Translations under genes and position numbers: made by a program
The notes under the pieces: generated by a model
Told to the model about the DNA's origin: nothing
The model's input: only the letters and a program-made list of their open reading frames with translations
The model's database searches: none
NCBI GenBank assembly: GCA_902496295.1
Contig: CABVAF010000003.1
Location: 3,356-67,355 of the forward strand
Origin: an uncultured Clostridium sp.
Lineage (GTDB): Bacteria > Bacillota > Clostridia > TANB77 > CAG-508
Length of the DNA: 64,000 bases
Direction of reading: 5' to 3'
Part shown: in pieces, positions 26,278 through 53,385 of the stretch
Layout: each line of letters opens with the position of its first letter
Numbering within the stretch: position 1 is the first letter of the stretch

Positions 26278-26305
26278 CTGTGCAGAGATATTATCACTGC
26301 ACAGC
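26278..26305. terminator. GC-rich hairpin between hpf and the GC-rich ORF
   Basis: CTGTGCAG...CTGCACAG stem flanked by an A-run and a T-run. Confidence 0.6.
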
Positions 26306-26346
26306 CTTTTTGCTAGGAGAGAAAACTCTCCCTGAGAGTAGAGGCC

Positions 26347-26763
26347 TTAGCTTTTAAGCTCCACGTTGATAGCGATGAAGTTTTGTCCGTCTTCGGACTG
26401 TTCAAAAGAGAAACTCTTGACAAACTTGGGATCCGAAAAGTAACGCATTGCGTAGTCCAGAAAGGCACGCAAATCACCAAAAGTGGACACCATGTGAAAA
26501 CGAACGTAGGAACCGCTGGGAAGGTAAATATCCATACAGGAAATACCTTTCCCGTTGCTGGGAACGTAAAGCTTGTCCTCGATATACCGTCCTTCAGAAT
26601 TGAAACGATGGTAAAAACGAAGAACCGCCTCGCACGAATCAACGCTTCCAAGCGCGTCGATTTGCTCTTTCAGAGCCTTGGACTTTTTGCCCTTCATCTT
26701 GTGCAGCAAAACCCGGAACTGGGAACTGCTGACAATGGGGCTTCCTTCCAAAGATGGAAACAT
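26347..26763 (-). CDS. hypothetical protein encoded in a GC-rich (~48%) island
   Basis: 138 aa with RBS AGAGGT 8 nt upstream of ATG. The composition shift is confined to the CDS plus its 3-prime UTR. No recognisable family. Confidence 0.5.
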   Translation of the reverse strand: MFPSLEGSPIVSSSQFRVLLHKMKGKKSKALKEQIDALGSVDSCEAVLRFYHRFNSEGRYIEDKLYVPSNGKGISCMDIYLPSGSYVRFHMVSTFGDLRAFLDYAMRYFSDPKFVKSFSFEQSEDGQNFIAINVELKS

Positions 26764-26961
26764 TGCTGATTACCTCTTTTCTCTATATATTAGGCTAAAA
26801 GCCGTATATTTATTATATCACAAAAATATATATAAAACAAATATATTATAAAATTAATATAAAAACAATAAAACAAAATTCGACTAATTATACTATATTT
26901 ATCATTTTTTTGGTGTTATAATGTAGTTGTGTGTAAAATTTGAAAAAGAGGGGTATATTTA

Positions 26962-28080
26962 GTGAAAATACTGTTAGTTATAGACCAATATCAAAATGGA
27001 AATAATGGAACAACAATTTCTGCAAGAAGATTTGCGGAAGGTCTGCAAAAAAGAGGACATACAGTAACAGTACTTACAACAGGTCAAGAAGGAGAAAATA
27101 AATTTATAGTAAAAAGTTTAAAACTTCCTATAGGAATTTCTGGAATAATAAAATCGCAAGGAATGAATTTTGCTGTACCAGATAAAGAAATAATAAGAAA
27201 AGCGATGCAAGATGTAGATATAGTACATTTTTATATGCCATTTTGGTTATCAAGGACTGCTAAAAAAATCGCAGATGAATTAAAAATTCCAAATACAGCT
27301 GCATTTCATGTACAACCAGAGAATATAACTTATACTATAAAAATGGGAAATGTAAAATTATTAAATGATAAAATTTATGAAGAATTTAGAGATGACTTCT
27401 TTAATAAGTTTAACAGAATACATTGCCCAAGTGAATTTATAGCAAATCAATTAAGAGAGCATAATTATACAGCAAAATTATATGTTATTTCAAATGGAAT
27501 ACAAGATAAATTTAGACCACTACCAAAAGAAGAAAAGAGCAAATTTGTTGTTACTATGGTAGGAAGGTTATCAGGAGAAAAAAGACAAGATTTGCTTTTT
27601 GAAGCAATAAAAAAATCAAAATATGAAAAAGATATTCAACTTGTTTTGGCAGGCAAAGGGCCAAAATATAGACAGTATGTAAAAATGGGGGAAGGATTAA
27701 CTAATAAGCCAGTTATAGAGTTCTGTAATGAAGAACAATTATTAGATTTATTACATAAAACAGATTTATATGTACATACTTCAGATGCAGAAATAGAAGC
27801 AATATCTTGTATAGAGGCAATTGCTTGTGGTAATGTTCCTATTATTTCAAATAGTAATAAATCTGCAACTCCGCAATTTGCATTAGATGAAAGGAGTTTG
27901 TTTGAAGCAGGAAATAGCGATGACTTAGCAAAAAAGATAGATGCATGGTTAGATAATCCACAAGAACTTAACAACATGAGGAAAACATATGCTGAAAGTG
28001 CCAATAAATATAGAATAGAGAATAGTATGAAAAAAATAGAGGAGATGTTTGAAGATGAAATTGCTGAGAGGAGTAATTAA
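26962..28080 (+). CDS. GT4-family glycosyltransferase
   Basis: 372 aa. GTG start with a GGGG RBS. GT-B fold pattern ending in the E-x7-E region. Extended -10 promoter TGTTATAAT upstream. Confidence 0.75.
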   Translation: MKILLVIDQYQNGNNGTTISARRFAEGLQKRGHTVTVLTTGQEGENKFIVKSLKLPIGISGIIKSQGMNFAVPDKEIIRKAMQDVDIVHFYMPFWLSRTAKKIADELKIPNTAAFHVQPENITYTIKMGNVKLLNDKIYEEFRDDFFNKFNRIHCPSEFIANQLREHNYTAKLYVISNGIQDKFRPLPKEEKSKFVVTMVGRLSGEKRQDLLFEAIKKSKYEKDIQLVLAGKGPKYRQYVKMGEGLTNKPVIEFCNEEQLLDLLHKTDLYVHTSDAEIEAISCIEAIACGNVPIISNSNKSATPQFALDERSLFEAGNSDDLAKKIDAWLDNPQELNNMRKTYAESANKYRIENSMKKIEEMFEDEIAERSN

Positions 28081-28750
28081 TTTTCTACAAGATACTTTTT
28101 ACTATTTAATTGCTGTACCAATTCTATTTGTGGTAAATAAAGTGGTACTGGGTTATAAAATAGTAGGAAAGGAAAATATAAAAAAAGTACCTGGAGCGAA
28201 GATAACAATTTCTAACCATGTACATACAATAGACTGTTCTATGAATGGGATAGTAAACTTTCCACAATATTGTTATTTTGTTACATTACAAAGTAATGTT
28301 GATTTACCTTTTATAGGAAAGTTGGTAAGATTACTAAGAGGTATTCCTATACCTTTAAAAATTTCTGAAAAAGAAAAATTTTATAAACATGTATCAAAGT
28401 TATTAGAGGAAGGGGAAACAGTACATATATATCCAGAAGGAGAACTAAGGTCATATGCAACGGATTTGATTAAATTTAAGAAAGGAGCTTTTGTAATAGC
28501 AGTAGAAAACAATGTTCCAATAGTTCCAAGTGTTATTTTAACAAGAGAACCAGAAGGAATATATAAATATTTTAAGAAAAAGCCTTTATTTACACAAGTC
28601 GTTCTAGAACCTATATATCCAGATTTGACAATAGAAAATAAAGGAGAAAGAATAAAAAAGATGTTAAATGAAGCTTATGAAAAAATGAGTAAATGTATAG
28701 AGAATAATGAAATGTTTGATGAAGATGAAAAACAAGAAGTAGAGGTTTAG
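28055..28750 (+). CDS. PlsC-family (lysophospholipid) acyltransferase
   Basis: HVHTID (HxxxxD) and PEG motifs. Overlaps the GT4 stop by 26 nt. Confidence 0.65.
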   Translation: MKLLRGVINFLQDTFYYLIAVPILFVVNKVVLGYKIVGKENIKKVPGAKITISNHVHTIDCSMNGIVNFPQYCYFVTLQSNVDLPFIGKLVRLLRGIPIPLKISEKEKFYKHVSKLLEEGETVHIYPEGELRSYATDLIKFKKGAFVIAVENNVPIVPSVILTREPEGIYKYFKKKPLFTQVVLEPIYPDLTIENKGERIKKMLNEAYEKMSKCIENNEMFDEDEKQEVEV

Positions 28751-28814
28751 AAAGTAGAAAGAAGACAACCACCAATTACTAAAAAAGTAAGTGGTGGTTG
28801 TTTCAGCTGAAAGG

Positions 28815-29255
28815 TCAGCTGTTCGATTCGAGCGGTTCGAAGCGAGGTTCAGAAGTGGACCACACAACGCCTTGATTCGACATTGAGGCGTATACGGTCA
28901 AGCCGTTTTTCATAGGAACTTTTGCCGTATTGGCTGAAATGAAAACTAGCTTAGGCGAAGCTGCCTCGGAGCAAAAACAATCGCTGTAAAAAGTGAGTTC
29001 GTCCTTAGACTGATAACGAGTACCATCACTCCAGAAGTATATGGAGAGAAATTCGCTATCAGACGTTTCCAAACGACCTTGACACTCTTCAAGTTGGGCC
29101 GACAACGTTTCGTTTTCTTCTTGCAGGGAGTTGATTTGCTGCGTCAGTTCAGCGACAGGGTCTTGGATATCCTCGTTACTTTCCTCCTCGCACCCAGAAA
29201 GTGACAACGTCACAAACAGGGCACATAAAATTATGAACCAAACCCGTTTCCTCAT
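28815..29255 (-). CDS. lipoprotein with coiled-coil segment, GC-rich (~47%) gene
   Basis: Probable start MRKRVWFIILCALFVTLSLSGC (lipobox LSGC) with AAAGGA RBS. The ORF track extends it to 29309. Confidence 0.5.
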   Translation of the reverse strand: MRKRVWFIILCALFVTLSLSGCEEESNEDIQDPVAELTQQINSLQEENETLSAQLEECQGRLETSDSEFLSIYFWSDGTRYQSKDELTFYSDCFCSEAASPKLVFISANTAKVPMKNGLTVYASMSNQGVVWSTSEPRFEPLESNS

Positions 29256-29449
29256 AATGCAACATCCTTTCTGTATAGTTGTAAATAAATAATAACATAT
29301 AATTAACATAATGTCAATTTAAGGAATTACTTACAAAAAAAGCAACCTTTTTAAAAATATCTAAAAAGGTTGCTTTTTTACGTGTTTTAAGCAAATATAT
29401 AAGTATAAAATACTAATACTATTTATGCTTTTTAAGTCCTACGCAAAAA

Positions 29450-29650
29450 CTATTTCATTTGGTTTTCAGCTTGTTGGATTAATTTCTTAACCATTTGACC
29501 ACCTATTCTACCAGCGTCTCTTGAAGATAAATCTCCATTATAACCTTGTTTTAAATTAACACCAACTTCGTTAGCTACTTCATATTTGAATTTGTTAAGA
29601 GCTTCTTTAGCTTCTGGAACTACAGAATAATTGCTGTTGTTATTTGCCAT
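29450..29650 (-). CDS. alpha/beta-type small acid-soluble spore protein
   Basis: Begins MANNNSNYSVVPEAKEALNKFKYEVANEVGV. RBS GGAGGTG. Confidence 0.85.
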   Translation of the reverse strand: MANNNSNYSVVPEAKEALNKFKYEVANEVGVNLKQGYNGDLSSRDAGRIGGQMVKKLIQQAENQMK

Positions 29651-29955
29651 GTCTTTCACCTCCTAAATGTGATAAATAAAGCTTTGAAAAAACGTTTTGT
29701 CTTTTCAATATATAGATTGCACAATAACTAAAAAAATAAACTGGAAATTTATGAGAAAAATTATAAAAAAATTTAATTAATTACCTATCAATAATTGTAT
29801 TTAAATTGTAAGTTTTGTATAATAAAGTAGATTTAGTTTAAAATTAGATATATAATGTAGAATATATTGTATATAAATAAATTAAAATGTAATATATAGG
29901 ATGAAATATAGCAGAAGCAAAAGTTTAAAGAAAGGAGATAATCATATAAAAATAT

Positions 29956-30831
29956 ATGTATAAGTTAATAGCAATAGATTTAGATGGTACATTATTAAAT
30001 TCATATGGAACAATATCTGAAACAGATAAAAATACTTTAAAAAAAGCAATAGAAAAAGGTATAAAAGTAATTCTTACTTCTGGACGAGGTACAATGTCTG
30101 TAAAAAATTTTGCAAATGAAATTGGAGTAGATGGAGATATTATTTGTGGAAATGGAGCCATAATATATAATTTGCAAGAAGATAAAATAATATACAACCA
30201 ATATATTGATAAAAATAAAGTTTTGCAAATTATGAAAATTTGTGAAGAAAATAGTATTTATTATAATGTTTTTACAGAAGACACTATATTAACAAGTTCA
30301 CTTGCATATAATGTTTTATTTTACAATCAGGAAAATATAAAAAAGCCAGATAGTAAGAAAACAAATATAAATATTATTCCAAATATTTATAAATATGTAG
30401 AAGAAAGAGTTAAAGAAGACTATTTAAAAATTTGCATATGTGATAAAAGTAATATTATATTTGGTGGTATAATGAAAAAATTAAAGGAAGTTAAAAATGT
30501 TAATGTTATGGAAGTGGCTCATATGGCAAGAAAACTTATTGCAAATGGTACAGATTATGTTCCAGTAGAATACTACATTACAGAAATAATGAATAGTGAT
30601 GCAGATAAATGGAATGCAGTTAAGTTTTTAGCAGATAAATTTAATATAGACAAAAGTGAAATTATAACAATAGGAGATAACGTAAATGATGAACAAATGC
30701 TAAGAAATGCGGGCCTTGGTGTAGCAATGGGAAATAGTGCTCCATACATACAAGAAATGGCAAAAGAGGTAACTTTGGATAATAATTCAAATGGAGTTGC
30801 ACATATTGTTGAAAAATATATACTTAATTAA
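29956..30831 (+). CDS. Cof-type HAD-family hydrolase
   Basis: Has the IAIDLDGTLL motif. 291 aa. Confidence 0.75.
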   Translation: MYKLIAIDLDGTLLNSYGTISETDKNTLKKAIEKGIKVILTSGRGTMSVKNFANEIGVDGDIICGNGAIIYNLQEDKIIYNQYIDKNKVLQIMKICEENSIYYNVFTEDTILTSSLAYNVLFYNQENIKKPDSKKTNINIIPNIYKYVEERVKEDYLKICICDKSNIIFGGIMKKLKEVKNVNVMEVAHMARKLIANGTDYVPVEYYITEIMNSDADKWNAVKFLADKFNIDKSEIITIGDNVNDEQMLRNAGLGVAMGNSAPYIQEMAKEVTLDNNSNGVAHIVEKYILN

Positions 30832-31285
30832 ATATTAAATTATAAAACTAATTGAATAATTAATAAAAAAAAGCACATAACTATTTTTAATAGGAGTGTG
30901 TTTTTTTATGAGTGGAAAAGATAGAAAAGAAATTGAAAGAAGAGAAAAAATAGACAGGACTAAAGAAGAAATAGGGGAGATAGAAGATACAACTAAGTAT
31001 GGGGAATTTGTATCTTCTTATTTTGCATGGCTTACTTTGGACAGACAAAAGAAGACAGCAAAAAGACTAGAAAATATTACTAAGAAAGATGAGGAAAAAT
31101 AGATTAAAAAAATTAGTAATAAGTAAAAAGGATAAAATATGAAATTAAATAATTTAGAAAGAATTAAAGAATGTAATTAAAAAAATTATAAAAAAGTATT
31201 GCAATATAAAAAAAATGTAGTATAATAATAATGTAGGTCAAAGAAAGTTAAAGTCAATAAAACAATAAAAAGAGGAAGTGATTAT

Positions 31286-31735
31286 ATGAGAATGTCAGAT
31301 ATAATAGAAGAATTTATAAAAGAAATGTTTGATGAGACAGACTTTATAGAAATACAGAGAAATGATTTAGCACAACAATTTAATTGTGTCCCATCCCAAA
31401 TAAATTATGTTATCTCAACAAGATTTAAACCTTCACAAGGTTATTATGTAGAAAGTAAAAGAGGTGGAGGAGGTCACATAACAATAAAAAGAATAAATAC
31501 AACTAAGAGCAATGCTTTAATGCATATTATATCTAGCATTGGAGATAAGTTAACAGCACAAGAGGTAGATATATTTATAAGAAATTTACTTTCTAAAACC
31601 TATATAAATGAGGTAGAAGCAAAATTATTAAAAGTAGCAACAAGTGACAATGTTCTTACTATACCAAATGAAATAAGAGACATTATAAGAGCAAGAATAT
31701 TTAAAAATATGCTTATAAATTTAGTTGAAGAATAA
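31286..31735 (+). CDS. ctsR: class III stress gene repressor CtsR
   Basis: Carries the conserved VPSQINYVISTRF and ESKRGGGGHI motifs. Confidence 0.85.
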   Translation: MRMSDIIEEFIKEMFDETDFIEIQRNDLAQQFNCVPSQINYVISTRFKPSQGYYVESKRGGGGHITIKRINTTKSNALMHIISSIGDKLTAQEVDIFIRNLLSKTYINEVEAKLLKVATSDNVLTIPNEIRDIIRARIFKNMLINLVEE

Positions 31736-31819
31736 AACGAAAGATAAATATTATAAATTTAATATAAGAAATAGTAAAACAATAATTAAGAACATAAAAA
31801 ATAAAGGAGGTAGATTTTT

Positions 31820-32395: not shown

Positions 32396-32515
32396 AACGA
32401 AGAACAAAATGGTAAAAAGCAAAATAGAAAAGCAAAATGCAAAAAATAAAACACAATAATAAAATGCAAGAGATATGTTAAACATAAAAGTATAGATTAA
32501 GAAGGGAGATAAAAT

Positions 32516-33550: not shown

Positions 33551-33569
33551 AAGAAAGGAAGTGTAATAT

Positions 33570-36017: not shown

Positions 36018-36076
36018 TTGCTAAAAGTAAAACCACATGCTATAATAGGTTCATACCAAAAGAGAAGGTGTATGAG

Positions 36077-36610: not shown

Positions 36611-37744
36611 ATGGATATTAAATATTTTGACCATGCTGCGACAACTGCAGTTGCACCTGAAGTATTACGTGAAATGATACCATACTTTAGTAAGAACTAT
36701 GGGAATGCGTCATCCATGTATGAAATTGCAAGAGTTTCTAAAAAAGCAATGAATGAAGCAAGAGCAAGAGTAGCACATGCAATTGGTGCATCTCCTAGAG
36801 AAATATATTTTACATCTTGTGGAAGTGAAAGCGACAATTTGGCAATTAAAGGAATTGCATATGCGAATAAAGAAAAAGGAAAGCATATAATTACAAGTAA
36901 AGTAGAGCATAATGCTGTTTTAAGTTCGTGTTCTAGATTAGAAGAGCAAGGTTTTGAGGTTACGTATCTTAATGTAGATGAATATGGTTTCATAGATTTA
37001 AATGAATTAGAAAATGCAATAAGAGAAGATACTATTTTAATTACAATAATGTTTGCAAATAATGAAGTAGGAACAATTGAGCCAATAGAAGATATCGCAA
37101 AAATAGCTCATAATCATAATATAGTTTTCCATACAGATGCAGTCCAAGCTATAGGTAATGTTAGAATAGATGTTAGAAAAATGGGAATAGATGCACTTTC
37201 TATGTCTGCACACAAATTTTATGGACCAAAGGGAATAGGAGCTCTTTATGTAAAAGATGGAATAGAATTTCAAAGAATTCAAGACGGAGGACACCAAGAA
37301 AGAGATAAAAGAGCAGGAACAGAAAATGTTGCAGAAATTGTTGGAATTGGAAAAGCTATAGAACTTGCATACCAAAATTTCGATAGACATTGTGAGTATT
37401 TAAAAAGCATAAGAGATTACTATATAAGTAAAGTTGAAAAAGAAATTCCATATGCAAAATTGAATGGAGATAGAGTAAAAAGATTACCTGGAAATGCCAA
37501 CTTTTCTTTTGATGGATTAAGCGGAGAAAAAATGTTATTTACTTTAGACCTACATGGAATTTGTGCTTCAGCAGGTTCAGCATGCGCTACCGGCTCACTT
37601 CTTCCATCACATGTTCTTTCAGCAATGGGAGTGCCAGATAGTTTAGCTTCAGGAACATTAAGAACAACTTTTGGAGTAGAAAATACAAAAGAAGATATTG
37701 ATTATTTGGTAAATTGTTTAAAAAATATTAAGCCTAATAGTTAG
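36611..37744 (+). CDS. cysteine desulfurase (NifS/IscS class)
   Basis: PLP-binding SAHKFYGPKG and active-site SAGSAC motifs. Confidence 0.85.
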   Translation: MDIKYFDHAATTAVAPEVLREMIPYFSKNYGNASSMYEIARVSKKAMNEARARVAHAIGASPREIYFTSCGSESDNLAIKGIAYANKEKGKHIITSKVEHNAVLSSCSRLEEQGFEVTYLNVDEYGFIDLNELENAIREDTILITIMFANNEVGTIEPIEDIAKIAHNHNIVFHTDAVQAIGNVRIDVRKMGIDALSMSAHKFYGPKGIGALYVKDGIEFQRIQDGGHQERDKRAGTENVAEIVGIGKAIELAYQNFDRHCEYLKSIRDYYISKVEKEIPYAKLNGDRVKRLPGNANFSFDGLSGEKMLFTLDLHGICASAGSACATGSLLPSHVLSAMGVPDSLASGTLRTTFGVENTKEDIDYLVNCLKNIKPNS

Positions 37745-37827
37745 AATTTATAGTTAAAAGATAGATTATAATAGAGTTTGTCTAGTTTGATATGTGAATT
37801 TTAGAATATAAAATAAAAAAGAGGAAG

Positions 37828-37860
37828 CCCCTGCATTTCTGCAGGGGCTTTGACTTTGTA
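37828..37860 (-). terminator. GC-rich hairpin terminator of the secreted-protein gene
   Basis: AAGCCCCTGCAG/CTGCAGGGGCTT stem then T-run on the minus strand. Confidence 0.7.
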
Positions 37861-37897
37861 GCATACACTTCGCAAAGATAACCAAGCAATTGTAAAG

Positions 37898-38893
37898 TTA
37901 CTTGTAGATATGGACAATCCCAGGTCCACCAGCGGAAATCATGGAATTGTCATACCAGATGTTCAGTCCGAACGCTTCTACGACGAAGCGAGCGGGCACC
38001 AGGGTGCGATTCCCAGAAATCATTGGAGCAACCGCCATTTGCAGCCACTTACCGTCATACCGCATATATGGATATGCGATATAGAGGTTAATAACGTGGC
38101 TCCTATTGGAGATGTTCACCTGCTGAGCTTGTCCGCCAACCCACTTAACATCGTAGCCAAGCATATCACCAAGGCTGTACACTGGAATCATGGTGTATCC
38201 CGGATCCACCACAATGGGTTGCTGGTCAGGGAAGTTTACGCGCTCCCCGTTCAACATAACGATAATCGGCGTGCGACCATCGTTGTTGATAAATACGCTA
38301 TCATCATAACGATAGTACTTGTATCCTAGAGCTGTTGCCCACTGCTGAAGAGTCTGATAAGTGGTATTGGCGTTCGAAGGAACCGTTCCGAAAATTGCCT
38401 TCAAACTATCGGTTTGAGGGTAGTTGACGTAGACGTTGGAGTCATTGCTGCCAAAACGATAGGCAGCATTGGAAACGTAATAACCGTTCCTGTACACCTT
38501 TACGGTGTTGATAAATGGCTCATCATCGTCATAGTCAGGATCGTCAAGAACCGGATCGTCGTAATCTCTACCGTCCGAGTAGAGATATACTTTATTATTT
38601 TTCACGTTGAAATCATAGCCAAATTCGTCTGCCCAATCACTCAGGCAAACATCATCCTTGGGGCTGGCGCTGAGCACGTCCTCGGTTTCGTCCGGAAAGA
38701 TTTTACGAATGTCATCCCAGGACTCCACCCAGACATCGTCGTGCCGGTCAAGGTAAGCGTTGTTTACGCCAGTGTAGTCGTTGTCAACGTACACCTTCAT
38801 GGAGCCACTTGCAGCAAATGCCACAGTGCTCATGGAGAAGACCATAACTACCGCAAGAAGGGTAGAGATAGCCCGTTTGATGTTCTTAAACAT
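37898..38893 (-). CDS. secreted protein with C-terminal copper-amine-oxidase N-terminal-like (Cu_amine_oxidN1) domain; GC-rich (~50%) gene
   Basis: Signal peptide MFKNIKRAISTLLAVVMVFSMSTVAFA. C-terminus ...APMISGNRTLVPARFVVEAFGLNIWYD matches the stalk-domain pattern. RBS GAAGGAGG. Confidence 0.6.
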   Translation of the reverse strand: MFKNIKRAISTLLAVVMVFSMSTVAFAASGSMKVYVDNDYTGVNNAYLDRHDDVWVESWDDIRKIFPDETEDVLSASPKDDVCLSDWADEFGYDFNVKNNKVYLYSDGRDYDDPVLDDPDYDDDEPFINTVKVYRNGYYVSNAAYRFGSNDSNVYVNYPQTDSLKAIFGTVPSNANTTYQTLQQWATALGYKYYRYDDSVFINNDGRTPIIVMLNGERVNFPDQQPIVVDPGYTMIPVYSLGDMLGYDVKWVGGQAQQVNISNRSHVINLYIAYPYMRYDGKWLQMAVAPMISGNRTLVPARFVVEAFGLNIWYDNSMISAGGPGIVHIYK

Positions 38894-39199
38894 GAAAATG
38901 CCTCCTTCTAAAATTTAAGCGAAATGTTAGTTGTCAATGTTCAGTGCATGCTTTAGAGTCATTCCTCCCATATATAAAAAATTATATATAAACATATTGT
39001 AAGTAGCCAAAGGCTAACCTCCAATATGGAAATGCATTATGGTCATTAGACCAAAACGCTAAGCGATGCTTAAAATAAAAGCAATGCTAATATAATTATA
39101 GCACAAATATTGGAAATAAGCAACGAGAGTTAGTTTATGTGAATAAACTAATAAATTGTGGAAATAATAAACTTAAAATTAGATGAATAGTGATTTATT

Positions 39200-40356: not shown

Positions 40357-40797
40357 TTAGCAAGGTTTTTCAGGTTTGCATGGAAGTTCTGGCTTGCATG
40401 GCTTATCTGGTCTACATGGTGGGCAGTCTAACTTTATTCCCTTTAGACATTTTCCTTCATGTTTACTTTCTACACAAACTTTGCAATGTTTTACTTCGTC
40501 AACCCAAATATTTATTTCATAATATCTATTTGCACAAAGTGGTCCAAATACAAACTCACCATTTTTATCTGTGAAAGTATGAGAAACAGGTCTTCTTTCT
40601 TCCTTTCCACAATCACAAACAACCTCTACTAATTTAACAACAGCATTGTCAACAGGGTCACCATAGCAGTCCTTAACAACTCCATAAATAACACTACGGT
40701 CATCGCATGGTAAAGTAATATCTAGGTCAAATTGTTTGCCAGTTGCAAGTATACCATCTACATTAACAACTGGACAAATTCCTTTATCATATTCCAT
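40357..40797 (-). CDS. cysteine-rich protein with carboxypeptidase-regulatory-like fold and C-terminal PCKPE repeats (possible spore coat/exosporium protein)
   Basis: 146 aa with 14 Cys. Tail reads CPPCRPDKPCKPELPCKPEKPC. RBS GAAGGAGG. Confidence 0.45.
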   Translation of the reverse strand: MEYDKGICPVVNVDGILATGKQFDLDITLPCDDRSVIYGVVKDCYGDPVDNAVVKLVEVVCDCGKEERRPVSHTFTDKNGEFVFGPLCANRYYEINIWVDEVKHCKVCVESKHEGKCLKGIKLDCPPCRPDKPCKPELPCKPEKPC

Positions 40798-42527: not shown

Positions 42528-43715
42528 ATGAAAATGAATAGCTCACTTATACGGTTGATTTCCATTGGTTCGCTAGATGCAATAAAAGATATATACCTAA
42601 ATATATTTTTAATTGCGAGAATTTACGACCTGGCAGACAACGCAACAAAAACAATTGCACTATATTACATTATCGAGTATGCATGTATTGCAATTACAAT
42701 GATAGTAGGAGGGAATTATTTTAAACAAAAACCCAACAATGGTTTAAGAGTTGGCATGATGGTAAACCTTATATTGCTACTTTTTATCATGAGACTAGAT
42801 GACCAAATAATTGTATACTATCCAATTGTAGCCTGTATCTTTGGGATTGCCATGGGGACTTATTATGGACCTATGCAGGTATTGCTTGGACATTTCGCTG
42901 ATGCAGACTCTGTAGGATACAGTACAATATCCACCATGTTATACAATATTGTTAATATTGTATTTCCAATTACTATCGGTGCTTACATTGAAACAACGTC
43001 TTTCTTTTCAGTAACATTATGCATGGTAGTTGTTACGAGTATCGAGATGCTACTATCTTTGGGAATTTCTAAAATACAGAATTCACAGAAATGTAATTTA
43101 TATGCTTTTCTTAAAGTCCTTAAGGACAATAGGAATTACAAAATTATCAATGTTTATGTTATCGTGTTCCTAAAGGGAATTACATCATCAGTATTGGATC
43201 GGACAGTTTTAATATTGATAATGATGATGTTTGGTAGTATCATGCAACTCGGAATATTGTCAACTATTTTTTCTATATTTACCGTGACAGCTAGTTGGAT
43301 AGTAAAAAAGCTATGTAAGGGAGATATTAAGAAATGGTTGATCAAAATTTCAGCAATCATGCCGATGCTAGCCGTTATATTGCTAGTAATCAATACAAGC
43401 ACAGAAACGTTTATCCTGTATAAGGCTGTGTCAGCAACATTTATTTGTATACTATCAGTTTTGGCTGATGCTAGTCGGTATAATACGATAGGAGACCTTA
43501 AGAAAACATATGCAGCAGAGCATCAAAATTTGTCAGAACTTTCGTTAGCAGCAGGAAGAATAACAGGTTTGACAATTTTGATAATAGTAAATGAATTTAT
43601 TGGAGGGCTAATTGCAATTAAGGCAATGTTGTTAATTATAGGAATGGTTATAATAGCATATGCATCTTTTATTGCAAAAGGACAGAATTACGACAACGTT
43701 ATGGAGGTGAAATAA
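42528..43715 (+). CDS. polytopic membrane protein (transporter-like)
   Basis: 395 aa with about 10-12 TM segments. Confidence 0.4.
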   Translation: MKMNSSLIRLISIGSLDAIKDIYLNIFLIARIYDLADNATKTIALYYIIEYACIAITMIVGGNYFKQKPNNGLRVGMMVNLILLLFIMRLDDQIIVYYPIVACIFGIAMGTYYGPMQVLLGHFADADSVGYSTISTMLYNIVNIVFPITIGAYIETTSFFSVTLCMVVVTSIEMLLSLGISKIQNSQKCNLYAFLKVLKDNRNYKIINVYVIVFLKGITSSVLDRTVLILIMMMFGSIMQLGILSTIFSIFTVTASWIVKKLCKGDIKKWLIKISAIMPMLAVILLVINTSTETFILYKAVSATFICILSVLADASRYNTIGDLKKTYAAEHQNLSELSLAAGRITGLTILIIVNEFIGGLIAIKAMLLIIGMVIIAYASFIAKGQNYDNVMEVK

Positions 43716-44546: not shown

Positions 44547-44569
44547 ATATAAATTAGGAAGTGGAATAA

Positions 44570-45208: not shown

Positions 45209-45222
45209 ATAGGAGAATTGTT

Positions 45223-46656: not shown

Positions 46657-46687
46657 TATAAATTAAGGGAAAAGTAAAAATTGAAAA

Positions 46688-46752
46688 ATAGAAATTAGGG
46701 ACCTGTCCCTAATTTCTGTATTTCAGAAAAAATGACCTGTCCCTAATTTCCA
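46688..46752 (-). repeat. repeat element copy C (inverted orientation) between convergent proS and 46743..47285
   Basis: Its reverse complement has the same two-unit structure as copies A and B. It contains the TAG stop of the minus-strand gene. Confidence 0.65.
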
Positions 46753-47285: not shown

Positions 47286-47398
47286 TTTGCTCACTCCTAA
47301 ATATTTTTTTCCATTATAACACAAAATGTTTATAAATACTATTATTTTTTTATTAAAAATGTTATACTTTATAAAGAATGTTTTAATATGGGGGAAAA

Positions 47399-48106
47399 AT
47401 GAAAAAAACACTATATGATATTTTAGAAGTTAGTGAAAAGGCTTCTAAAGAGGTAATAGAAAAAGCATATAAAGTTTTAGCTAAAAAGTATCATCCTGAT
47501 TTACAAACGGAGGAGAATAAAACTGAAGCAGAAAGCAAAATGAAAGAAATAAATGAGGCATATAATATTTTAAGTAATGATGATGAGAGAAAAAAATATG
47601 ATGCTGAATTAGAAAATACTAGAGAAATAGAAAGGCAAGAAGAAATTGCTAGACAACAGAATGTATACACAAATGAAAATGCAGGAAACTATAATTTAAA
47701 TATGCAAAATAATAGAGCGCCACAAGGAAATGTTAACGATAATAATTTGCAAAGAGATTTGCAAGAGGTTTTAAGAAAACAGCAAGAAAGTTTAAGAATG
47801 CAACAAGCCGCATATGCTAAACAACAAGCCGAAATGGAAAAACAATATAATAATGCCTATTATAAGTATTTAAAAAGTTTGGGATATAAAATTAAATTTA
47901 AATGGACATGGAAACAGTATGTTACACTATTTATAGTAATTATGGTATTAATAGGTATTGGGCTTATTTTGTGGATTATTCCTCCAACTCATGATTGGAT
48001 GCTAGAATTATACAATAATAATATATTTATAAAAACGTTTGTAAATATATTTATAGGAATTTTTAACGGGATAGGAAAGATAATTTCAAGTATTTTTAGT
48101 GATTAG
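47399..48106 (+). CDS. J-domain (DnaJ-like) protein with C-terminal membrane anchor
   Basis: J-domain YDILEV...KKYHPD. Gln-rich linker and C-terminal TM helices. Confidence 0.65.
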
Positions 48107-48292
48107 AACGACTAATAGCTATTTTCCTTTAGATAATCTAACATTTTGGTAATATTATAAAAATTATTATAACTTTTTATAAAAATTTGCATTTTTACAT
48201 ATTGAATAAATATTTTAATTTAGTATATAATTATTTATAAGTACAAGCTTGGATAGTAAAATATTCAAGCTTAATTTTTAAGGAGGGATATT

Positions 48293-49369
48293 ATGGATAG
48301 AAAAATTAGAGTTATGCAATATGGAACTGGCAAAATGTCTACTTACACAATGCGTTATGTATTTGAAAAAGGAGCAGAAATTGTAGGAGCTGTTGATGTA
48401 AATCCAGAAGTTATTGGAAAAGATATTGGCGAAATAATGAAAACGGAAAATAAAAACGTTATAGTAAAAAATGTTAGTGAGGCTGAAAGTATTATAAACG
48501 AAACAAAACCAGATATTGTTATTGTTACTACAATGAGCTTAATAAAAGATGTAGAAGATGCATTAATGTTATGTGCAAAAATGGGAGTAAATGCTATTAC
48601 AACATGTGAAGAAGCGTTTTACCCAGCAAATTCTAATCCAGAAATAACAAAAAGAATAGATGAATTAGCAAAACAAAATGGTTGTACAATAACAGGAAGT
48701 GGTTATCAAGATATTTATTGGGGACAACTTATTAGTTCAATAGCAGGTTCTACTCATAAAATAACAAAAATAAAGGGAAGCTCAAGCTATAATGTAGAAG
48801 ACTATGGAATAGCTTTAGCAAAAGCTCATGGCGCAGGACTTACATTAGAGGAGTTTGAAGAGCAAGTGGCATCAGTAGATAAAATATCTGACGAGGAAAG
48901 ACAAAATGTAATAAACGCAGGGGAGTATCTACCTTCATATATGTGGAATGTAAATGGCTGGTTATGCGAGAAATTAGGATTAACTGTTGAAAGACAAACT
49001 CAAAAAACAGTTCCACAAACATATAAAGAGGATATTTATTCTACTACATTAGGAATGAATGTTCCTGCTGGAAATGCTACTGGAATGAGTGCTGTTGTTA
49101 CAACAACTACAAAAGAGGGTGTTACAATAGAGTCAGAATGTATAGGAAAAGTATATTCTAAAGAAGATTATGATAAAAATGAATGGACAATAGAAGGCGA
49201 GCCAAATACTACTATTGTTGTGGCAAGACCAAATACTGTAGAATTAACATGTGCATCTATAGTAAATAGAATTCCAGATGTAATAAATAGTGAAGCAGGG
49301 TATATTCCAACAGACAGAATGGGAGAATTACAATATAGAGTAAAACCTTTAAATGAGTATGTAAAATAA
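48293..49369 (+). CDS. DapB-like NAD(P)-binding oxidoreductase (possible amine dehydrogenase, e.g. 2,4-diaminopentanoate dehydrogenase family)
   Basis: N-terminal Rossmann fold IRVMQYGTGKMS...GAVD. Confidence 0.45.
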   Translation: MDRKIRVMQYGTGKMSTYTMRYVFEKGAEIVGAVDVNPEVIGKDIGEIMKTENKNVIVKNVSEAESIINETKPDIVIVTTMSLIKDVEDALMLCAKMGVNAITTCEEAFYPANSNPEITKRIDELAKQNGCTITGSGYQDIYWGQLISSIAGSTHKITKIKGSSSYNVEDYGIALAKAHGAGLTLEEFEEQVASVDKISDEERQNVINAGEYLPSYMWNVNGWLCEKLGLTVERQTQKTVPQTYKEDIYSTTLGMNVPAGNATGMSAVVTTTTKEGVTIESECIGKVYSKEDYDKNEWTIEGEPNTTIVVARPNTVELTCASIVNRIPDVINSEAGYIPTDRMGELQYRVKPLNEYVK

Positions 49370-49487
49370 AATTTTTATAAAAGAATAAAGAGATAAAAAA
49401 ATTAGCAAGTTAGAAAAATAAAAAAGCTATGTTAAAAGCTATATTAGCATTTGTAAATGTTAATATAGCTTTTTTATAAATGTTTTA

Positions 49488-50525
49488 TTAAATTTCAATA
49501 TAATTGTATTCACAAGCACGAATTAGTCTGTTCATAATTGCAAGACCTATTCCAGACTTTTCTACACCTTCTATAATTACTATATCTGGGTTATATTTAT
49601 CTACTTTTCTTAAATCTGTAAATAAATTTTTAGAAATTTCCTCAAGATTCTTTTTAGAGCCAATGTCTATTTTATTTTCTATATTATACATTTCCATATT
49701 TTCTGCACAAGATATTACAACAGGATTTTCGTATTCTGATAAAAGCTCGTTTATTTTATCTACCATTTTAGAATTATCTTTGCTATATACTAGTATACAT
49801 TTAGATTGTGGTGCATAATGCCTATATTTCATACCAGGAGATAAAACCTTTTGATTTTTTTCCAATTTTCCTAAAACATGTTCATCTATAATAACATCTC
49901 CTGCAACAGATTTTAATTGTTCGGCTGTTATTCTACCAGGTCTTAAAATATGTGGAATGTTATCTATTACACGCACTACAGTAGACTCCAAACCTATGTC
50001 ACAATTACCGCCATTTATTATATAATCTACTTTATTAAATAATTCTTCAGAGATATCATCTAAATTAGTTCCGCTTGGCTTTCCAGAAATATTAGCGCTG
50101 GGGGCAGCAATAGGAACACCTGAATATTTAATTAAATTATGTGCGATTTTGTTACTTGGCATACGTACACCAACTGTATTTAATCCACTTGTAACTATAT
50201 TTGGTACAATAGGTGTTCTTTCTAATATAATTGTAAAAGGGCCAGGCCAAAATGCATTCATTAGTTTATATTCAACTTCTGAGATATTTTGAGATATAGT
50301 TTTAAGCATTTCGTAGTCAGATATGTGGAGTATTAAAGGATTGTCGCTACTTCTTCCTTTAGCAGTATATATACTTTTTACAGCTTCTTCATTAAGTCCA
50401 TTAGCACCAAGTCCATAAACAGTTTCTGTAGGAAAAAGAACTAATCCGCCATCTGCAATTATTTTTCCAGCATCTTGTAATTTAGTATATTCTTGACAAT
50501 TTGTTAAATCTAAATAATTTTTCAT
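49488..50525 (-). CDS. tsaC: L-threonylcarbamoyladenylate synthase (Sua5/TsaC family, long form)
   Basis: YrdC domain (VLFPTETVYGLGAN) plus a Sua5 C-terminal domain. Confidence 0.8.
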   Translation of the reverse strand: MKNYLDLTNCQEYTKLQDAGKIIADGGLVLFPTETVYGLGANGLNEEAVKSIYTAKGRSSDNPLILHISDYEMLKTISQNISEVEYKLMNAFWPGPFTIILERTPIVPNIVTSGLNTVGVRMPSNKIAHNLIKYSGVPIAAPSANISGKPSGTNLDDISEELFNKVDYIINGGNCDIGLESTVVRVIDNIPHILRPGRITAEQLKSVAGDVIIDEHVLGKLEKNQKVLSPGMKYRHYAPQSKCILVYSKDNSKMVDKINELLSEYENPVVISCAENMEMYNIENKIDIGSKKNLEEISKNLFTDLRKVDKYNPDIVIIEGVEKSGIGLAIMNRLIRACEYNYIEI

Positions 50526-50719
50526 TTCTATAACTTCCTTTTTTTATTAACGCAACTTATATTATATACCGAAAACATTAAAAAGTCCAGTAGTATAAGT
50601 TTTTGTAATTTTTAAATTTTAACATTGCATCTAATTTTTTCATGTGCTAAAATTATAATGTAGAAAAATGTAAAATATTTAGTATAAACATAAATAAAAA
50701 TTAATAAAAGGAAACAATT

Positions 50720-51385
50720 ATGAGAATTAGGTTTAAACCATGGGCAAGACCAGAATTAGAGGCAAGTAAATTTTATATAGATAATCCAGAAGAATATAAA
50801 GGAAAATGGAGACAAGCTTTTAAAGAAAAAGAAAATGAATTGCATTTAGAATTAGGATGTGGCAAAGGAAGTTTTATATCACAATTAGCAGTTAAAAATC
50901 ATAATATAAACTACTTAGCAATAGATTTAGTAGATGCAATGCTTGGATTAGCAAAAAGAAATATTGAGCAAAAGTATGAGGAAATGAAATCGGAAATTGA
51001 CAACATTATAATAACAAGATATGATATAGAAAGAATTTTTAATATTCTAAGTATAGAAGACAATGTAACAAGAATATATATAAACTTTTGTAATCCATGG
51101 CCTCGTGGAAAACACCATAAAAAAAGACTTACACACATAAGACAATTAGAAAAATATAAGCAGTTTTTACAAAAAAACGGTAAGATATATTTTAAAACAG
51201 ATGATGATAGTCTATTTGCAGACAGTTTATCATATTTAAAACAAACAGGTTTTATTATAGAAAATTTTACATATGATTTAGAAAAAGAAGAAAATTTTTG
51301 GGATAATATTATTACAGAACATGAGCAAATGTTTATGAACGAAGGAATAAAAATAAAAGCAGTTATAGCTAGATTGGAGGAATAA
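50720..51385 (+). CDS. trmB: tRNA (guanine46-N7)-methyltransferase
   Basis: LELGCGKGSF SAM-binding motif. 221 aa. Confidence 0.8.
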   Translation: MRIRFKPWARPELEASKFYIDNPEEYKGKWRQAFKEKENELHLELGCGKGSFISQLAVKNHNINYLAIDLVDAMLGLAKRNIEQKYEEMKSEIDNIIITRYDIERIFNILSIEDNVTRIYINFCNPWPRGKHHKKRLTHIRQLEKYKQFLQKNGKIYFKTDDDSLFADSLSYLKQTGFIIENFTYDLEKEENFWDNIITEHEQMFMNEGIKIKAVIARLEE

Positions 51386-52734
51386 TGGAAATAATTAATT
51401 CTATAATAAATTTTTTTAAAAATATTACAACAGAGCAAATTTTAACAATGGGAATATCAGTTGGAATTATAATACTTTTTTGTTTATTTAGTTCTCTAAT
51501 TGCATATGGAATAATTAAAATTTTTAAGTGGAAAAGCACTAGAAAAGAGATAAAAGAAAATTCATTATATAAGCCAATAAAAACAGTTGTTATTTGGATA
51601 GGACTACATGTTGCTATATTAATTTTAGGATTACCAAGTAATGTGACTTCAATATGCAACAAAATTTTTAGAATAGGAATTATAGTAATATTGGCAATTG
51701 GAATAGCTAATATGTTTTCTCCAGATTCAAAAATATTTAAGAAAATTTCTAACCATAAAAGAATAAAAGGAAACCAAACTCTAATTAATTTTATTAGTAA
51801 GGTAGCAAAAGGAGTAGTTTATGTTATTGCAACACTTTTAATAATGACAGAATTAAACTTTAACTTAGGTGGACTTGTAGCAGGACTTGGGCTAAGTGGA
51901 GTTATAATTGCATTAGCTGCTCAAGATATCGCAAAAAATTTATTTGGAGGAATGGCAATTATACTAGATAAGCCATTTTCAGTTGGAGATTGGATACAAA
52001 CTGCTAACTATTCTGGAACAGTAGAAGATATAACTTTTAGAAGTACACGTCTTAGAATGACAGATAATACTGTTGTTACTATACAAAATTCTACTTTATC
52101 AAATGAACCTGTTATAAATTATGCTAAACTTCCAATGAGAAGATATTCAACAACACTTAATTTAGCACTAGAAACAAATTCTGATGTTGTGGAGAATATA
52201 ATAGGAAAGTTAAAGTTTGCTCTTTCTAATACAGAGGGAGTAGTTGTAAGTGGACTTAATGTATATTTTCAAAAAATTTCAGAGGATGGTATAGAAATAG
52301 GAATATTTTTTAACACAAAAATTGTTTCATATAATGAATATTTGGCTTTTTGTGAGCAAATTAATTTGTTATTACTAAAGGTATTAGAGTCTGAAAATGT
52401 TAAACTATCATATCCTACACAGAAAGTATATGTAGCAGATAAAAATGATTTTAATGAAAATAGTAAGAAACTTTCTAAAAAGAATGTTACTAAAAATGAC
52501 AATATAGAGAAATTACTTAATGATAGTATAAATAAAAATATAGATGAATTAATAAATGGTAAAAAAGAAAATAATACAAATAATAAGTCTACTGCTGAAA
52601 AAGAAAAGAAAAAAAGTGCTGCTACATTAAGTAGTAAAATAGTAAAATCGGCTAAAAAAGTTTCAGAAGCAATTGTTAAAGTCGAAAGAAAGCAAAAAAA
52701 CTCGAAAAATGTAAATGATAAAATTACAAAATAA
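51385..52734 (+). CDS. MscS-family mechanosensitive channel
   Basis: TM segments followed by the MscS beta-domain pattern (GDWIQ...GTVEDITFRSTRLR) and a lysine-rich tail. Confidence 0.7.
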   Translation: MEIINSIINFFKNITTEQILTMGISVGIIILFCLFSSLIAYGIIKIFKWKSTRKEIKENSLYKPIKTVVIWIGLHVAILILGLPSNVTSICNKIFRIGIIVILAIGIANMFSPDSKIFKKISNHKRIKGNQTLINFISKVAKGVVYVIATLLIMTELNFNLGGLVAGLGLSGVIIALAAQDIAKNLFGGMAIILDKPFSVGDWIQTANYSGTVEDITFRSTRLRMTDNTVVTIQNSTLSNEPVINYAKLPMRRYSTTLNLALETNSDVVENIIGKLKFALSNTEGVVVSGLNVYFQKISEDGIEIGIFFNTKIVSYNEYLAFCEQINLLLLKVLESENVKLSYPTQKVYVADKNDFNENSKKLSKKNVTKNDNIEKLLNDSINKNIDELINGKKENNTNNKSTAEKEKKKSAATLSSKIVKSAKKVSEAIVKVERKQKNSKNVNDKITK

Positions 52735-52830
52735 GTAAACAAATTTGCAAATATATGGAAAATGGTGTATAATAGTTATATGAGTTCCTCATGAGGGTGA
52801 GCATTATATTGTAGAGAGGACTAGATAGAT

Positions 52831-53217
52831 ATGGTAAATATGGAACCCAAGCAGGCAGAGGTAATGAAGCAGCTGCACGAAATGCGGAATAAAGGCCACT
52901 TTTCCAGCATCGAGATGGAGGAGGAGAGCCTTTGGATGGAGGTAACGGAATTGCTCCGTACCACCATTCTCTTCAGCGAAGCGCCCCTCATGCGGGCCAA
53001 GATCATGATTTTCCAGAATTGGGACAAGGTAAACCTGAGTTATCGCCTGGGTGGCGACGACAAGTCGCTGGTACGCCAGTTCGCGCTGGAGTACAGCCCC
53101 AATCGCATCAGACAGTTGGAAAACCGTGCCATCCGGAACGGTTACAAGACCAAGTATAGCCCGCCGGACGCGGATTACAAGGCAGGACTTCTCGAAATCG
53201 AGCTTGATCTCGCCTAA
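52831..53217 (+). CDS. hypothetical protein encoded in a GC-rich (~50%) island flanked by inverted repeats
   Basis: 128 aa with RBS AGAGGA. Extended -10 TGTATAAT at 52763-52770 and GC-rich terminator at 53274-53303. My manual count places the ATG one nt earlier than the ORF track. Confidence 0.5.
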   Translation: MVNMEPKQAEVMKQLHEMRNKGHFSSIEMEEESLWMEVTELLRTTILFSEAPLMRAKIMIFQNWDKVNLSYRLGGDDKSLVRQFALEYSPNRIRQLENRAIRNGYKTKYSPPDADYKAGLLEIELDLA

Positions 53218-53273
53218 GGTGTAAAACCAAGGACGAGTTTTGGAACTCTAACTGATGAATAATGCTCACTCTA

Positions 53274-53303
53274 ACCCCCGTGCTGTTGCGCGGGGTAATT
53301 TTT
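53274..53303 (+). terminator. Rho-independent terminator
   Basis: CCCCGTGC-TGTT-GCGCGGGG hairpin then T6. Confidence 0.7.
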
Positions 53304-53385
53304 TGTCAAAAAATATTTTTTTGTTCACAATATAGACATAATAAATAGTTATAATATATAATAATTATGTGTTATGGAGGTAAAT

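Follow-up and report, generated by a model that had tools for sequence, protein, structure and literature searches.

Four unrelated GC-rich orphan genes in gaps between housekeeping genes of an AT-rich gut Clostridia genome

Introduction

Atypical base composition is routinely taken as a clock for recent gene transfer, and a 64,000-nucleotide stretch of DNA from an uncultured Clostridium sp. (contig CABVAF010000003.1, positions 3,356 to 67,355; referred to here as the window) bears on how such a clock should be read. The window belongs to an uncultured, spore-forming, ∼28% GC genus of human-gut Clostridia, and it contains four GC-rich segments, here called islands 1 to 4, each occupied by one gene. 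The initial annotation proposed that these were related acquisitions from one higher-GC donor, or alternatively parts of something dispersed, and the question is therefore where the genes came from and why they are so rich in GC. We find that they are real protein-coding genes, unrelated to each other and restricted to one lineage, each forming a one-gene unit in a gap between conserved housekeeping genes. That they are recent and related arrivals from a single donor can be set aside. Bearing a foreign signature as strong as such signatures can be, the islands are fixed, syntenic and old relative to the turnover of host silent sites, such that either the composition clock is badly wrong for genomes of this type, or something actively keeps single genes GC-rich; we put the probability of an explanation of the second kind, set out below, at about one half.

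Composition and layout of the islands

The GC content of the whole window is 28.5%. A 300-nt profile and a 120-nt scan agree in placing sharp peaks at 26.3, 28.8, 37.9 and 52.8 kb, with a lower one at 10.2 kb, and windows of 120 nt with at least 40% GC mark out all four islands (Table 1). The scan peak of island 3 begins within the 3′ part of its IscS-like neighbour, the foreign-looking unit proper extending from ∼37815 to 39100. We used a crude catalogue of 58 non-overlapping open reading frames (ORFs) from the window as the host reference, in which the GC content at third codon positions (GC3) has a median of 0.16, with host genes at 0.10–0.23. Set against this, the islands are strong outliers, as first described, with 46–53% GC and GC3 of 0.47–0.72, and a gene with a Spo0A_C-like domain at 10168 is indeed a milder fifth.

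The codon usage of the islands is anti-correlated with that of the host (relative synonymous codon usage, RSCU, r = −0.20 to −0.36), and the host-like codon adaptation that would have counted against the initial reading is clearly not seen. Among arginine codons 85% are CGN in the islands and 79% are AGA in the host, TTA provides 2% and 58% of leucine codons, respectively, and codons ending in A drop from 49% in the host to 11–22%. GC content in the islands is periodic with codon position (GC3 > GC1 > GC2), and GC1, GC2 and the use of arginine over lysine, R/(R+K), are raised along with GC3. Base composition is near-uniform, and there is no striking trinucleotide depletion relative to a synonymous shuffle that would point to an ACA or other nuclease-type motif. 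The islands also differ from one another in their codon signatures, with RSCU correlations of −0.07 to 0.44 between them.

The description of each island as a single gene provided with promoter-like and terminator-like signals of its own is sustained. Consensus scans and inverted-repeat searches place sigma-70-like hexamers upstream of each coding sequence (CDS), with an extended −10 in three of the four, and a hairpin followed by a T-run downstream. GC content is 0.15–0.22 in the upstream promoter DNA, 0.30–0.40 in the 5′ untranslated region (UTR), 0.46–0.53 in the CDS, 0.36–0.47 in the 3′UTR and terminator, and 0.09–0.17 in the spacers beyond; because it is high within the predicted transcript and 0.09–0.22 outside it, the GC-rich zone coincides with the predicted transcribed region. 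The called neighbours of the islands are housekeeping genes with no integrase or transposase among them, as the initial annotation had remarked, and to this we add that a tRNA scan and an Rfam gathering scan of the window returned no tRNA and no Rfam family. An inverted-repeat search of the window, examined for flanking repeats that could act as element ends, gave only the terminator hairpins and one 14-nt pair in the UTRs of island 4.

Table 1. Positions of the islands, their predicted signals and the milder outlier, in window coordinates.
Feature	Position	Strand	Product (aa)	GC	GC3	Remarks
Island 1 GC peak	26261-26820			43.6%		
Island 1 CDS	26347-26763	minus	138	46%	0.55	
Island 1 predicted promoter	26821 down to 26811	minus				TGTGATATAAT; AT-rich, conserved across species
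Island 1 predicted promoter and short 5′UTR	26764-26821	minus				invariant columns in three-species alignment
Island 1 predicted 3′UTR	26271-26346	minus				two hairpins, at 26325-26339 and, facing the converging hpf, at 26271-26311
Island 2 GC peak	28731-29290			43.6%		
Island 2 CDS	28815-29258	minus	147	46%	0.50	GC3 0.47 if counted from 29309
Island 2 promoter-like site	29289-29317	minus				TTGACA, 17 nt, TATTAT, with TG; 11/12 consensus matches
Island 2 hairpin	28765-28801					predicted terminator for island 2 and the converging acyltransferase gene; 16-nt arms, 94% complementary
Island 3 GC peak	37481-38970			43.2%		
Island 3 CDS	37898-38893	minus	331	48%	0.57	
Island 3 predicted promoter	-10 at 39095-39100	minus				TGCTATAAT
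Island 3 predicted terminator	37820-37850	minus				AAGCCCCTGCAGAAATGCAGGGGCTT plus T-run; kept in four lineages
Island 4 GC peak	52761-53330			47.9%		
Island 4 CDS	52831-53217	plus	128	53%	0.72	
Island 4 predicted promoter and 5′UTR	52745-52830	plus				TTGCAA, 17 nt, TATAAT; AT-rich
Island 4 predicted 3′UTR and terminator	53218-53300	plus				terminator 53276-53295
Spo0A_C gene GC peak	10151-10670			39.6%		lower than the island peaks
Stand-alone Spo0A_C-domain gene	10168-10620	plus	150	40%	0.40	

Relatives, donors and mobility

All relatives of the island proteins with readable context lie on AT-rich contigs of the same clade, and no donor or out-of-clade relative was found in 5.8–15 billion proteins, phage records or IMG/VR. 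Specifically, tblastn searches of 50,697 phage records returned nothing for islands 1 and 4, scans of IMG/VR returned nothing for islands 1, 3 and 4, PHROGs gave only weak matches of the coiled-coil or lipoprotein type, and the PADLOC defence models matched none of the six proteins tested. The four island proteins show no similarity to one another by phmmer. With unrelated proteins, differing codon signatures and no donor found, a common origin in one higher-GC donor lacks support, and the same is true of the proposal that the islands are parts of something dispersed, there being no protein similarity and no shared repeat or motif; shared flanking motifs, in particular, were not found in the window.

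Nor do known mobile or diversifying systems provide a match. The islands have their own promoter-like sites and T-run hairpins, are dispersed over 27 kb and have no integrase among their neighbours, all of which sets them apart from integron cassettes, although no attC model was run. The window contains no silent or partial island copies, template repeats or reverse transcriptase, and variation within the island 3 family is distributed over the whole protein, unlike what is expected of a diversity-generating retroelement or a cassette-based variation system.

The window matches a 197-kb scaffold from a human-gut metagenome, and the nearest species representatives in the genome collection are metagenome-assembled genomes of 'uncultured Clostridia' and Clostridium sp. 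CAG:452, family-level relatives whose ClpC proteins are 72–81% identical to that of the window species. Islands 1–3 are absent from the family-level relatives sampled, in which the island 4 site was not sampled. By comparison, none of the congeners sampled at the sites of islands 1, 3 and 4 lacks the respective gene, so that the initial alternative that these are core genes of the genus is correct for island 1 (5 of 5 species), island 3 (4 of 4 lineages) and island 4 (3 of 3 species), but not for the patchily distributed island 2. These comparisons show that islands 1, 3 and 4 already occupied the sites they have now when the sampled species diverged, and that they have been vertically inherited since, because the nonsynonymous divergence (dN) of islands 1 and 3 tracks that of their flanks, and because the promoter, leader and terminator of island 3 are conserved with compensatory changes. 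The island proteins evolve 4–16 times faster than those of their neighbours. The sites are described below, with sampled loci cited by their L numbers.

Island 1 is located between a glycosyltransferase gene and hpf. A metagenome scan using the adjoining glycosyltransferase returned 33 loci, and a 137–138-residue homologue occupies this gap in all five congeneric species sampled. The homologues are 26–60% identical to one another with GC3 of 0.39–0.55, while the flanks are 88–94% identical; in ten species pairs the island dN (0.25–0.91) climbs with the flank dN (0.03–0.07), exceeding it 6–16-fold, and the closest three species agree in both. The promoter and 5′UTR are much better conserved than the CDS. 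A HMMER search of 1.84 billion representatives yielded four real relatives, of ∼137 residues and 27–58% identity, and two spurious matches to repeat proteins. The product is predicted to be cytoplasmic and belongs to no known family, with no significant Pfam, NCBIfam or PADLOC match and one weak PHROG match (E 0.005). Its AlphaFold2 (AF2) model has a compact alpha/beta fold (predicted local distance difference test score, pLDDT, 83.5), for which no fold match was found in PDB or BFVD.

In an unbiased sample of ten contigs from one sister species, the density of single-nucleotide polymorphisms (SNPs) is 21.7 per kb in island 1 and 3.7–16.3 per kb in the flanks, and the island 1 3′UTR is the most polymorphic stretch, with 78 segregating sites per kb. 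The sample contains a single allele class, and with an SNP density only about twice that of the flanks this excludes co-existing ancient alleles as well as any ongoing tenfold hypermutation; the latter was considered and rejected on these grounds. We note that contigs for islands 1 and 4 recovered by exact-protein look-up are nearly identical, as that manner of selection implies.

Two further observations were made at this site. A hairpin in the 5′UTR, GGCTAAAAGCC (26792-26802, minus strand), lies just past the −10 box and shows no change among three species that share only 26–41% identity in the coding region. In one strain of the window species (L013, 7395-9868) a DDE_Tnp_1 insertion sequence and three small ORFs are present between hpf and the S20 gene, near island 1.

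Island 3 is found at the junction of TauE and IscS genes in each of the four lineages. The L114 (same contig as L021) and L121 versions are 75–82% identical to it with GC3 of 0.47–0.54, and the same slot in L116–119 contains a 390-residue version that is 37% identical with GC3 of 0.60. The dN of the neighbouring genes is 0.07–0.15 for L116–119 as compared with 0.04–0.05 for L114, and the L116 lineage is ∼2.7-fold deeper. Island 3 exceeds its neighbours in dN about fourfold at each of the three depths examined. The family retains its codon signature, rich in codons ending in C or T and avoiding A, in L116 and L120. A paralogue, 31% identical with GC3 of 0.67, is situated between GPR and EndoIII in another 30% GC contig. 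We find ∼10 close clusters of relatives; all further matches are remote and confined to the widespread C-terminal domain, and an AT-rich remnant orthologue was looked for in the distant relative L027 without one being found.

The island 3 product is predicted to be secreted: its signal peptide precedes two repeat modules in the N-terminal part, and an acidic linker leads to a C-terminal Cu_amine_oxidN1 domain (PF07833; E 3.8e-21, 75.5 bits against a cut-off of 24.2, residues 214–317, 101 of 108 profile positions). It resembles the secreted 'stalk-domain' proteins of Firmicutes that carry PF07833 in its C-terminal domain but differs from them in its N-terminal repeats, which belong to no family, and in forming a subfamily confined to this clade. 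The promoter, leader and terminator are conserved in the four lineages, including the distant L116. The leader is an AT-rich 5′ segment of ∼195 nt with several hairpins (38894-39100, minus strand; L114 9780-10010; L121 9790-10010; L116 1040-1255), and two of its predicted pairs are retained despite changes on both sides, one of them in a hairpin that changes from GGTC..GACC to GGGC..GCCC. An Rfam E-value scan of the leader gave chance-level matches only, and the leader could be a cis-regulatory RNA of an undescribed type.

Island 4 lies between an MscS-type channel gene and a response regulator gene in all three species (the window species, L021 and L024/25/26). Its orthologues in L021 and L024–26 are 70–74% identical with GC3 of 0.55–0.57, and the neighbouring genes are 78–95% identical, with synonymous divergence (dS) of 0.5–0.9 and GC3 of 0.12–0.17. 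Nucleotide identity of the CDS is 67–72%, and the promoter and 5′UTR are largely conserved in the three species, clearly more so than the CDS. The product is predicted to be cytoplasmic and is of no known family; its relatives comprise 13 clusters among 5.8 billion, all of 128–144 residues and at least 63% identical. The AF2 model (pLDDT 75.8) is a compact alpha/beta fold with no PDB fold match. A sigma-70 region-4 helix-turn-helix at the C-terminus was considered and finds no support in Pfam, the AF2 topology or the fold search. In addition, a 14-nt segment of the 5′UTR (52794-52807) is 93% complementary to one in the 3′UTR (53259-53272), an arrangement largely kept in the two sister species that could represent end-to-end pairing of the mRNA or a relic of insertion.

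Island 2 has a different history. It lies between a gene for a small acid-soluble spore protein (SASP) and an acyltransferase gene in the window species, L107/108 and L109–113, the latter two copies being 81% and 65% identical with GC3 of 0.44–0.46, and its relatives form four clusters only. It is missing from five other congeneric species sampled there (L114, L121/L138, L123, L128 and L129–139), which have clean SASP–acyltransferase junctions, and comparison of these junctions indicates that island 2 is a later insertion, in one subclade. The product begins with a lipoprotein-like signal (the signal peptide ends in LSGC), and a coiled-coil-like segment comes next. Other, unrelated GC-rich singletons are present downstream of the acyltransferase gene in L125 (1573-3908; a 145-residue secreted protein, GC3 0.42, in a 2.4-kb strain-specific insertion) and L142 (5953-6432; a 159-residue protein, GC3 0.41), and the recurrence of unrelated GC-rich genes at one spot in other lineages suggests that it is a preferred landing site.

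Two minor points concern this junction. The public gene call of the most distant island 2 orthologue (L109–L113; 185 residues) spans two stop codons, the real ORF encoding 147 aa, and the longer call has the appearance of an artefact of gene calling in the collection it came from. The alpha/beta-type SASP encoded next to island 2 (29450-29650, minus strand) is identical or nearly so in every congener in which the full gene was read, and its dS relative to L123 is only 0.08 where that of its neighbours is 0.5–1.1, an unusually strong conservation of silent sites.

Silent-site tests of compositional decay

Silent sites of the islands are near saturation between species, and island GC3 over all species' copies spans 0.39–0.72. 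For the host, we compared 1,656 four-fold degenerate sites in 20 genes of the window species and the L114/L021 species, where the GC content at such sites (GC4) is 0.076 and the G/C-versus-A/T state correlates by only 0.081 between the two. The product of the descendants' excess GC fixes the ancestral GC4 however the path is split between the branches, and under the host process the ancestor would require a GC4 of 1.39 for island 3 (observed 0.50 and 0.41) and 1.48 for island 4 (0.64 and 0.36). Because a GC4 above 1 is impossible, passive decay at the host's four-fold turnover does not fit these two islands. With a rate matrix fitted to the host, an ancestor with G or C at all four-fold sites would now show a GC4 of 0.35, and the observed values are 0.41–0.64. 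Between the window and L114 copies of island 3, four-fold identity is 0.31 with 0.25 expected by chance, and the 4×4 table of states is indistinguishable from independence (p 0.22).

A likelihood comparison using 100 four-fold sites of island 3 in three species is in keeping with these calculations. A stationary Hasegawa-Kishino-Yano process of the island's own (A.23, C.25, G.18, T.35; branches 2–5 times those of the host) has a log-likelihood (lnL) of −394.9 with k = 7 parameters. The host process is worse whether the ancestral composition and branches are free (lnL −402.8, k = 6; ∼14 units of the Akaike information criterion, AIC) or host branch lengths are imposed (lnL −425.2, k = 3; ∼52 AIC units), and the free version works only with GC4 at 0.90 in the root and with a branch to the window 0.4 times as long as the host's. 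We also note that the GC3 of each of the four islands is highest in the window species, despite its having the longest host branch. Parsimony polarisation of synonymous changes was dropped, as host genes at equilibrium gave a strong spurious excess of A/T-to-G/C changes and the outgroups were saturated.

Explanations for the persistent GC-richness

The explanation that we favour, with a probability of roughly 50%, is that the islands are old, separately acquired orphan genes whose transcribed regions are held GC-rich by a fixation bias favouring G and C. The genes would have entered by separate, old horizontal transfers from sources that our searches did not find, and their present GC content would be an equilibrium of their own and not a fading donor signature. 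The force that we would favour is selection on the make-up of the mRNA or its codons, either because codons foreign to the host limit or condition translation, or because a GC-rich mRNA resists decay; GC-biased gene conversion would be our second choice. In a two-allele mutation–selection calculation a scaled strength of ∼2.3 lifts GC4 from 0.08 to 0.45, and the same calculation predicts that silent substitutions accumulate ∼1.5-fold faster, which agrees with the elevated rates observed. Selection and GC-biased conversion would leave identical signatures in populations and are not separable here, and the raised GC1, GC2 and arginine-over-lysine use fit either; it is the sharp limits at promoter and terminator, together with the conserved AT-rich UTRs of island 4, that lead us to prefer selection.

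Somewhat more tentatively, we suggest that the composition of individual genes may be a trait, selected or driven by conversion, that is held near 50% GC across speciation, and not a passive record of origin. Such a trait would be either a whole-gene form of expression control by non-host codons, or a bacterial counterpart, lacking donor cassettes, of the variable, GC-rich loci known from Borrelia and Plasmodium. An AT bias of mutation has been found almost everywhere, and ever since then the forces acting on bacterial base composition have been an open question. Active maintenance, if true, would provide a clean natural system for the study of selection or biased conversion on base composition, as it comprises four loci in several species, has AT-rich controls only a few bases distant and is well covered by public human-gut metagenomes. 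The islands also bring to notice four uncharacterised protein families, two of them predicted to be exported, in a common uncultured gut lineage.

Several considerations weigh against active maintenance. Ordinary horizontal transfer with incomplete amelioration, a sharper form of the initial reading in which each gene reached the genus ancestor (island 2 later) from some gut organism or element of higher GC and, being under weak constraint, is still decaying, we regard as less likely but as a serious rival. It has several points in its favour. The composition and codon usage of the islands are those of an ordinary Firmicute of 45–55% GC, as a plain foreign gene would have, nearly any donor is of higher GC than a 28% GC host, the genes are absent from family-level relatives, and island 2 is patchy within the genus, with other GC-rich singletons at its site in L125 and L142. 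GC3 varies by species: island 1 is lowest in L128, L129 and L138, and its GC4 of 0.16–0.24 in L128 and L129, at few strictly comparable four-fold sites, looks like ordinary decay, while island 4 has a GC3 of 0.55–0.57 in L021 and L024 as compared to 0.72 in the window. Parsimony on island 4 counts 11 G/C-to-A/T changes and 4 in reverse, a tally that we left unused given the unreliability of the method. The sites are few, islands 1 and 4 offering 19–35 four-fold positions in each pairwise comparison, and we know of no documented force that acts on the whole transcripts of a few genes in bacteria such as these.

The neutral reference is also imperfect, since codon selection may purge G and C from host four-fold sites faster than neutral turnover. 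Intergenic DNA as a whole is too constrained to serve in its place (the correlation of G/C-versus-A/T state is 0.48) and was used only as a lenient bound: with the four least conserved spacers, whose retention we estimate at ∼0.2, an ancestral GC4 of ∼0.9 suffices for the split between the window species and L114, which is extreme but possible. Under this reference only the deeper comparison of island 3 with L116 stays decisive, in that it alone continues to demand an impossible ancestral value, and it depends on the orthology of one family. What argues against amelioration is that this orthologue, in a ∼2.7-fold deeper lineage, still has a GC3 of 0.60, that island 1 alleles as little as 26–60% identical maintain GC3 of 0.39–0.55, that host four-fold turnover demands an impossible ancestor and the host-process models fit island 3 less well, and that no donor or out-of-clade relative emerged from the protein, phage and IMG/VR searches.

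A second alternative, which we consider improbable, places the bias in the locus: the islands would sit at spots prone to recombination or conflict, where GC-biased conversion or error-prone repair raises both substitution rate and GC content, as has been proposed for variable GC-rich loci of other AT-rich genomes. Three of the four islands are indeed head-on to the main gene direction and run towards a converging neighbour. Divergence is elevated at silent sites as well as in the proteins (island 3 silent-site branches being 2–5 times those of host genes), SNPs are about twice as dense in island 1 as in the flanking DNA and reach their maximum in the 3′UTR, and the elevation of GC1, GC2 and R/(R+K) with a near-uniform base composition could reflect such a process. 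But the GC-rich zone ends at promoter and terminator with no taper into the flanks, island 4 is co-directional and has conserved UTRs with only the CDS diverging, and other head-on genes of the host (10681-12438, 13209-14930, 49488-50525 and 29450-29659) have a normal composition. The window, moreover, has no repeats, silent copies or reverse transcriptase, and each species has a single allele class of low polymorphism.

Far less probable still is a single dispersed system or regulon to which all four genes would belong. They have an unusual composition in common, each has a sigma-70-like promoter, in three cases with an extended −10, and the 5′UTR ends of islands 1 and 4 look vaguely alike by eye (TATAGAGAnnAGAGG); but the proteins are not similar, no repeat or motif is shared, the predicted locations differ (two cytoplasmic, one lipoprotein, one secreted), no defence-system model matches, and island 2 is missing from most of the species that retain the other three.

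Finally, GC-rich patches within AT-rich genomes are frequently structured RNAs, and islands 1 and 3 contain long antisense ORFs, but the notion that the islands are such RNAs with chance ORFs, or else assembly chimeras, can be dismissed given the lack of an Rfam match, the codon-position periodicity, a dN well below the saturated dS, the Pfam domain and signal peptide of island 3, the signal peptide of island 2, the confident AF2 folds of islands 1 and 4, and the recurrence of the same junctions and the same proteins on contigs from many independent human-gut samples and different assemblers, which rules out an assembly artefact. Dual coding on the antisense strand was likewise rejected, because the long antisense ORFs stem from the avoidance of TTA, CTA and TCA codons in the sense frame.

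Comparison with known systems

A search of the full-text literature found no report of this pattern, although elements of it are familiar. Acquired genes and ORFans of atypical composition are reportedly the subject of the amelioration model of Lawrence and Ochman and of the ORFan studies of Daubin and Ochman. Classical bacterial ORFans are A+T-richer than their hosts and are expected to converge on host composition. The islands are similarly short, lineage-restricted, fast-evolving, compositionally deviant and lodged between conserved genes; unlike ORFans, they are ∼20 points richer in G+C than the host, occupy fixed sites across species and have not converged despite near-saturated silent sites. 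They differ from single acquired genes, too, in having no mobility genes, tRNA sites or repeats.

The O-antigen (rfb) and capsule clusters of enterobacteria are low-GC, multi-gene regions with many co-existing alleles exchanged by recombination. Here, as there, a deviant composition persists at a fixed site with an interior far more divergent than its conserved flanks, but the islands are single genes with one allele class per species and deviate towards GC. Borrelia vlsE and its cassettes, the MgPa repeats of Mycoplasma genitalium and Plasmodium var are GC-rich variable loci that use silent donor arrays and segmental gene conversion. The islands are likewise GC-richer and faster-evolving than their AT-rich surroundings, and two of the four products are predicted to be exported; the other two are cytoplasmic, however, and there are no partial copies or repeats in the window and no clustered hypervariable segments.

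Rare-codon regulation is known from TTA and bldA in Streptomyces, the serine codons of sinR in Bacillus subtilis, and starvation-robust codons, each concerning one codon or amino acid. The parallel is that the choice of non-host codons might itself be selected, for its effect on translation; the difference is that the islands are recoded at all amino acids over the whole gene.

Other compositional outliers and neighbouring genes

The milder outlier at 10168 matches PF08769 (Spo0A_C; E 1.1e-16; score 61.1 bits, cut-off 25). That the gene is Spo0A proper, which would additionally have a receiver domain, was rejected because TIGR02875 scores 48.8 against a cut-off of 200 and matches in the C-terminal part only. 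The protein has distant matches in gut phage records and in two PHROGs. In a sister species, L121 contains a prophage-like block beside the TauE genes (1-8213), in which a low-GC gene for a 118-residue Spo0A_C protein accompanies those for a serine recombinase and a phage replication protein; this fits a phage link for stand-alone Spo0A_C genes of this kind.

Two other genes were noted in passing. The first, at 42528-43715 on the plus strand, encodes a 395-residue polytopic membrane protein with GC3 of 0.31 and no Pfam, NCBIfam or PHROG match; it is absent between the SSB and methyltransferase genes of the sister species L114, and may be a sixth, weaker island. The second, at 40357-40797 on the minus strand (L114 7863-8354), encodes a cysteine-rich protein of 146–163 residues with KPE/CKP-type repeats and a weak CarboxypepD_reg match; its GC1 is high (0.52–0.54) with a normal GC3, and the product may be spore-coat-like.

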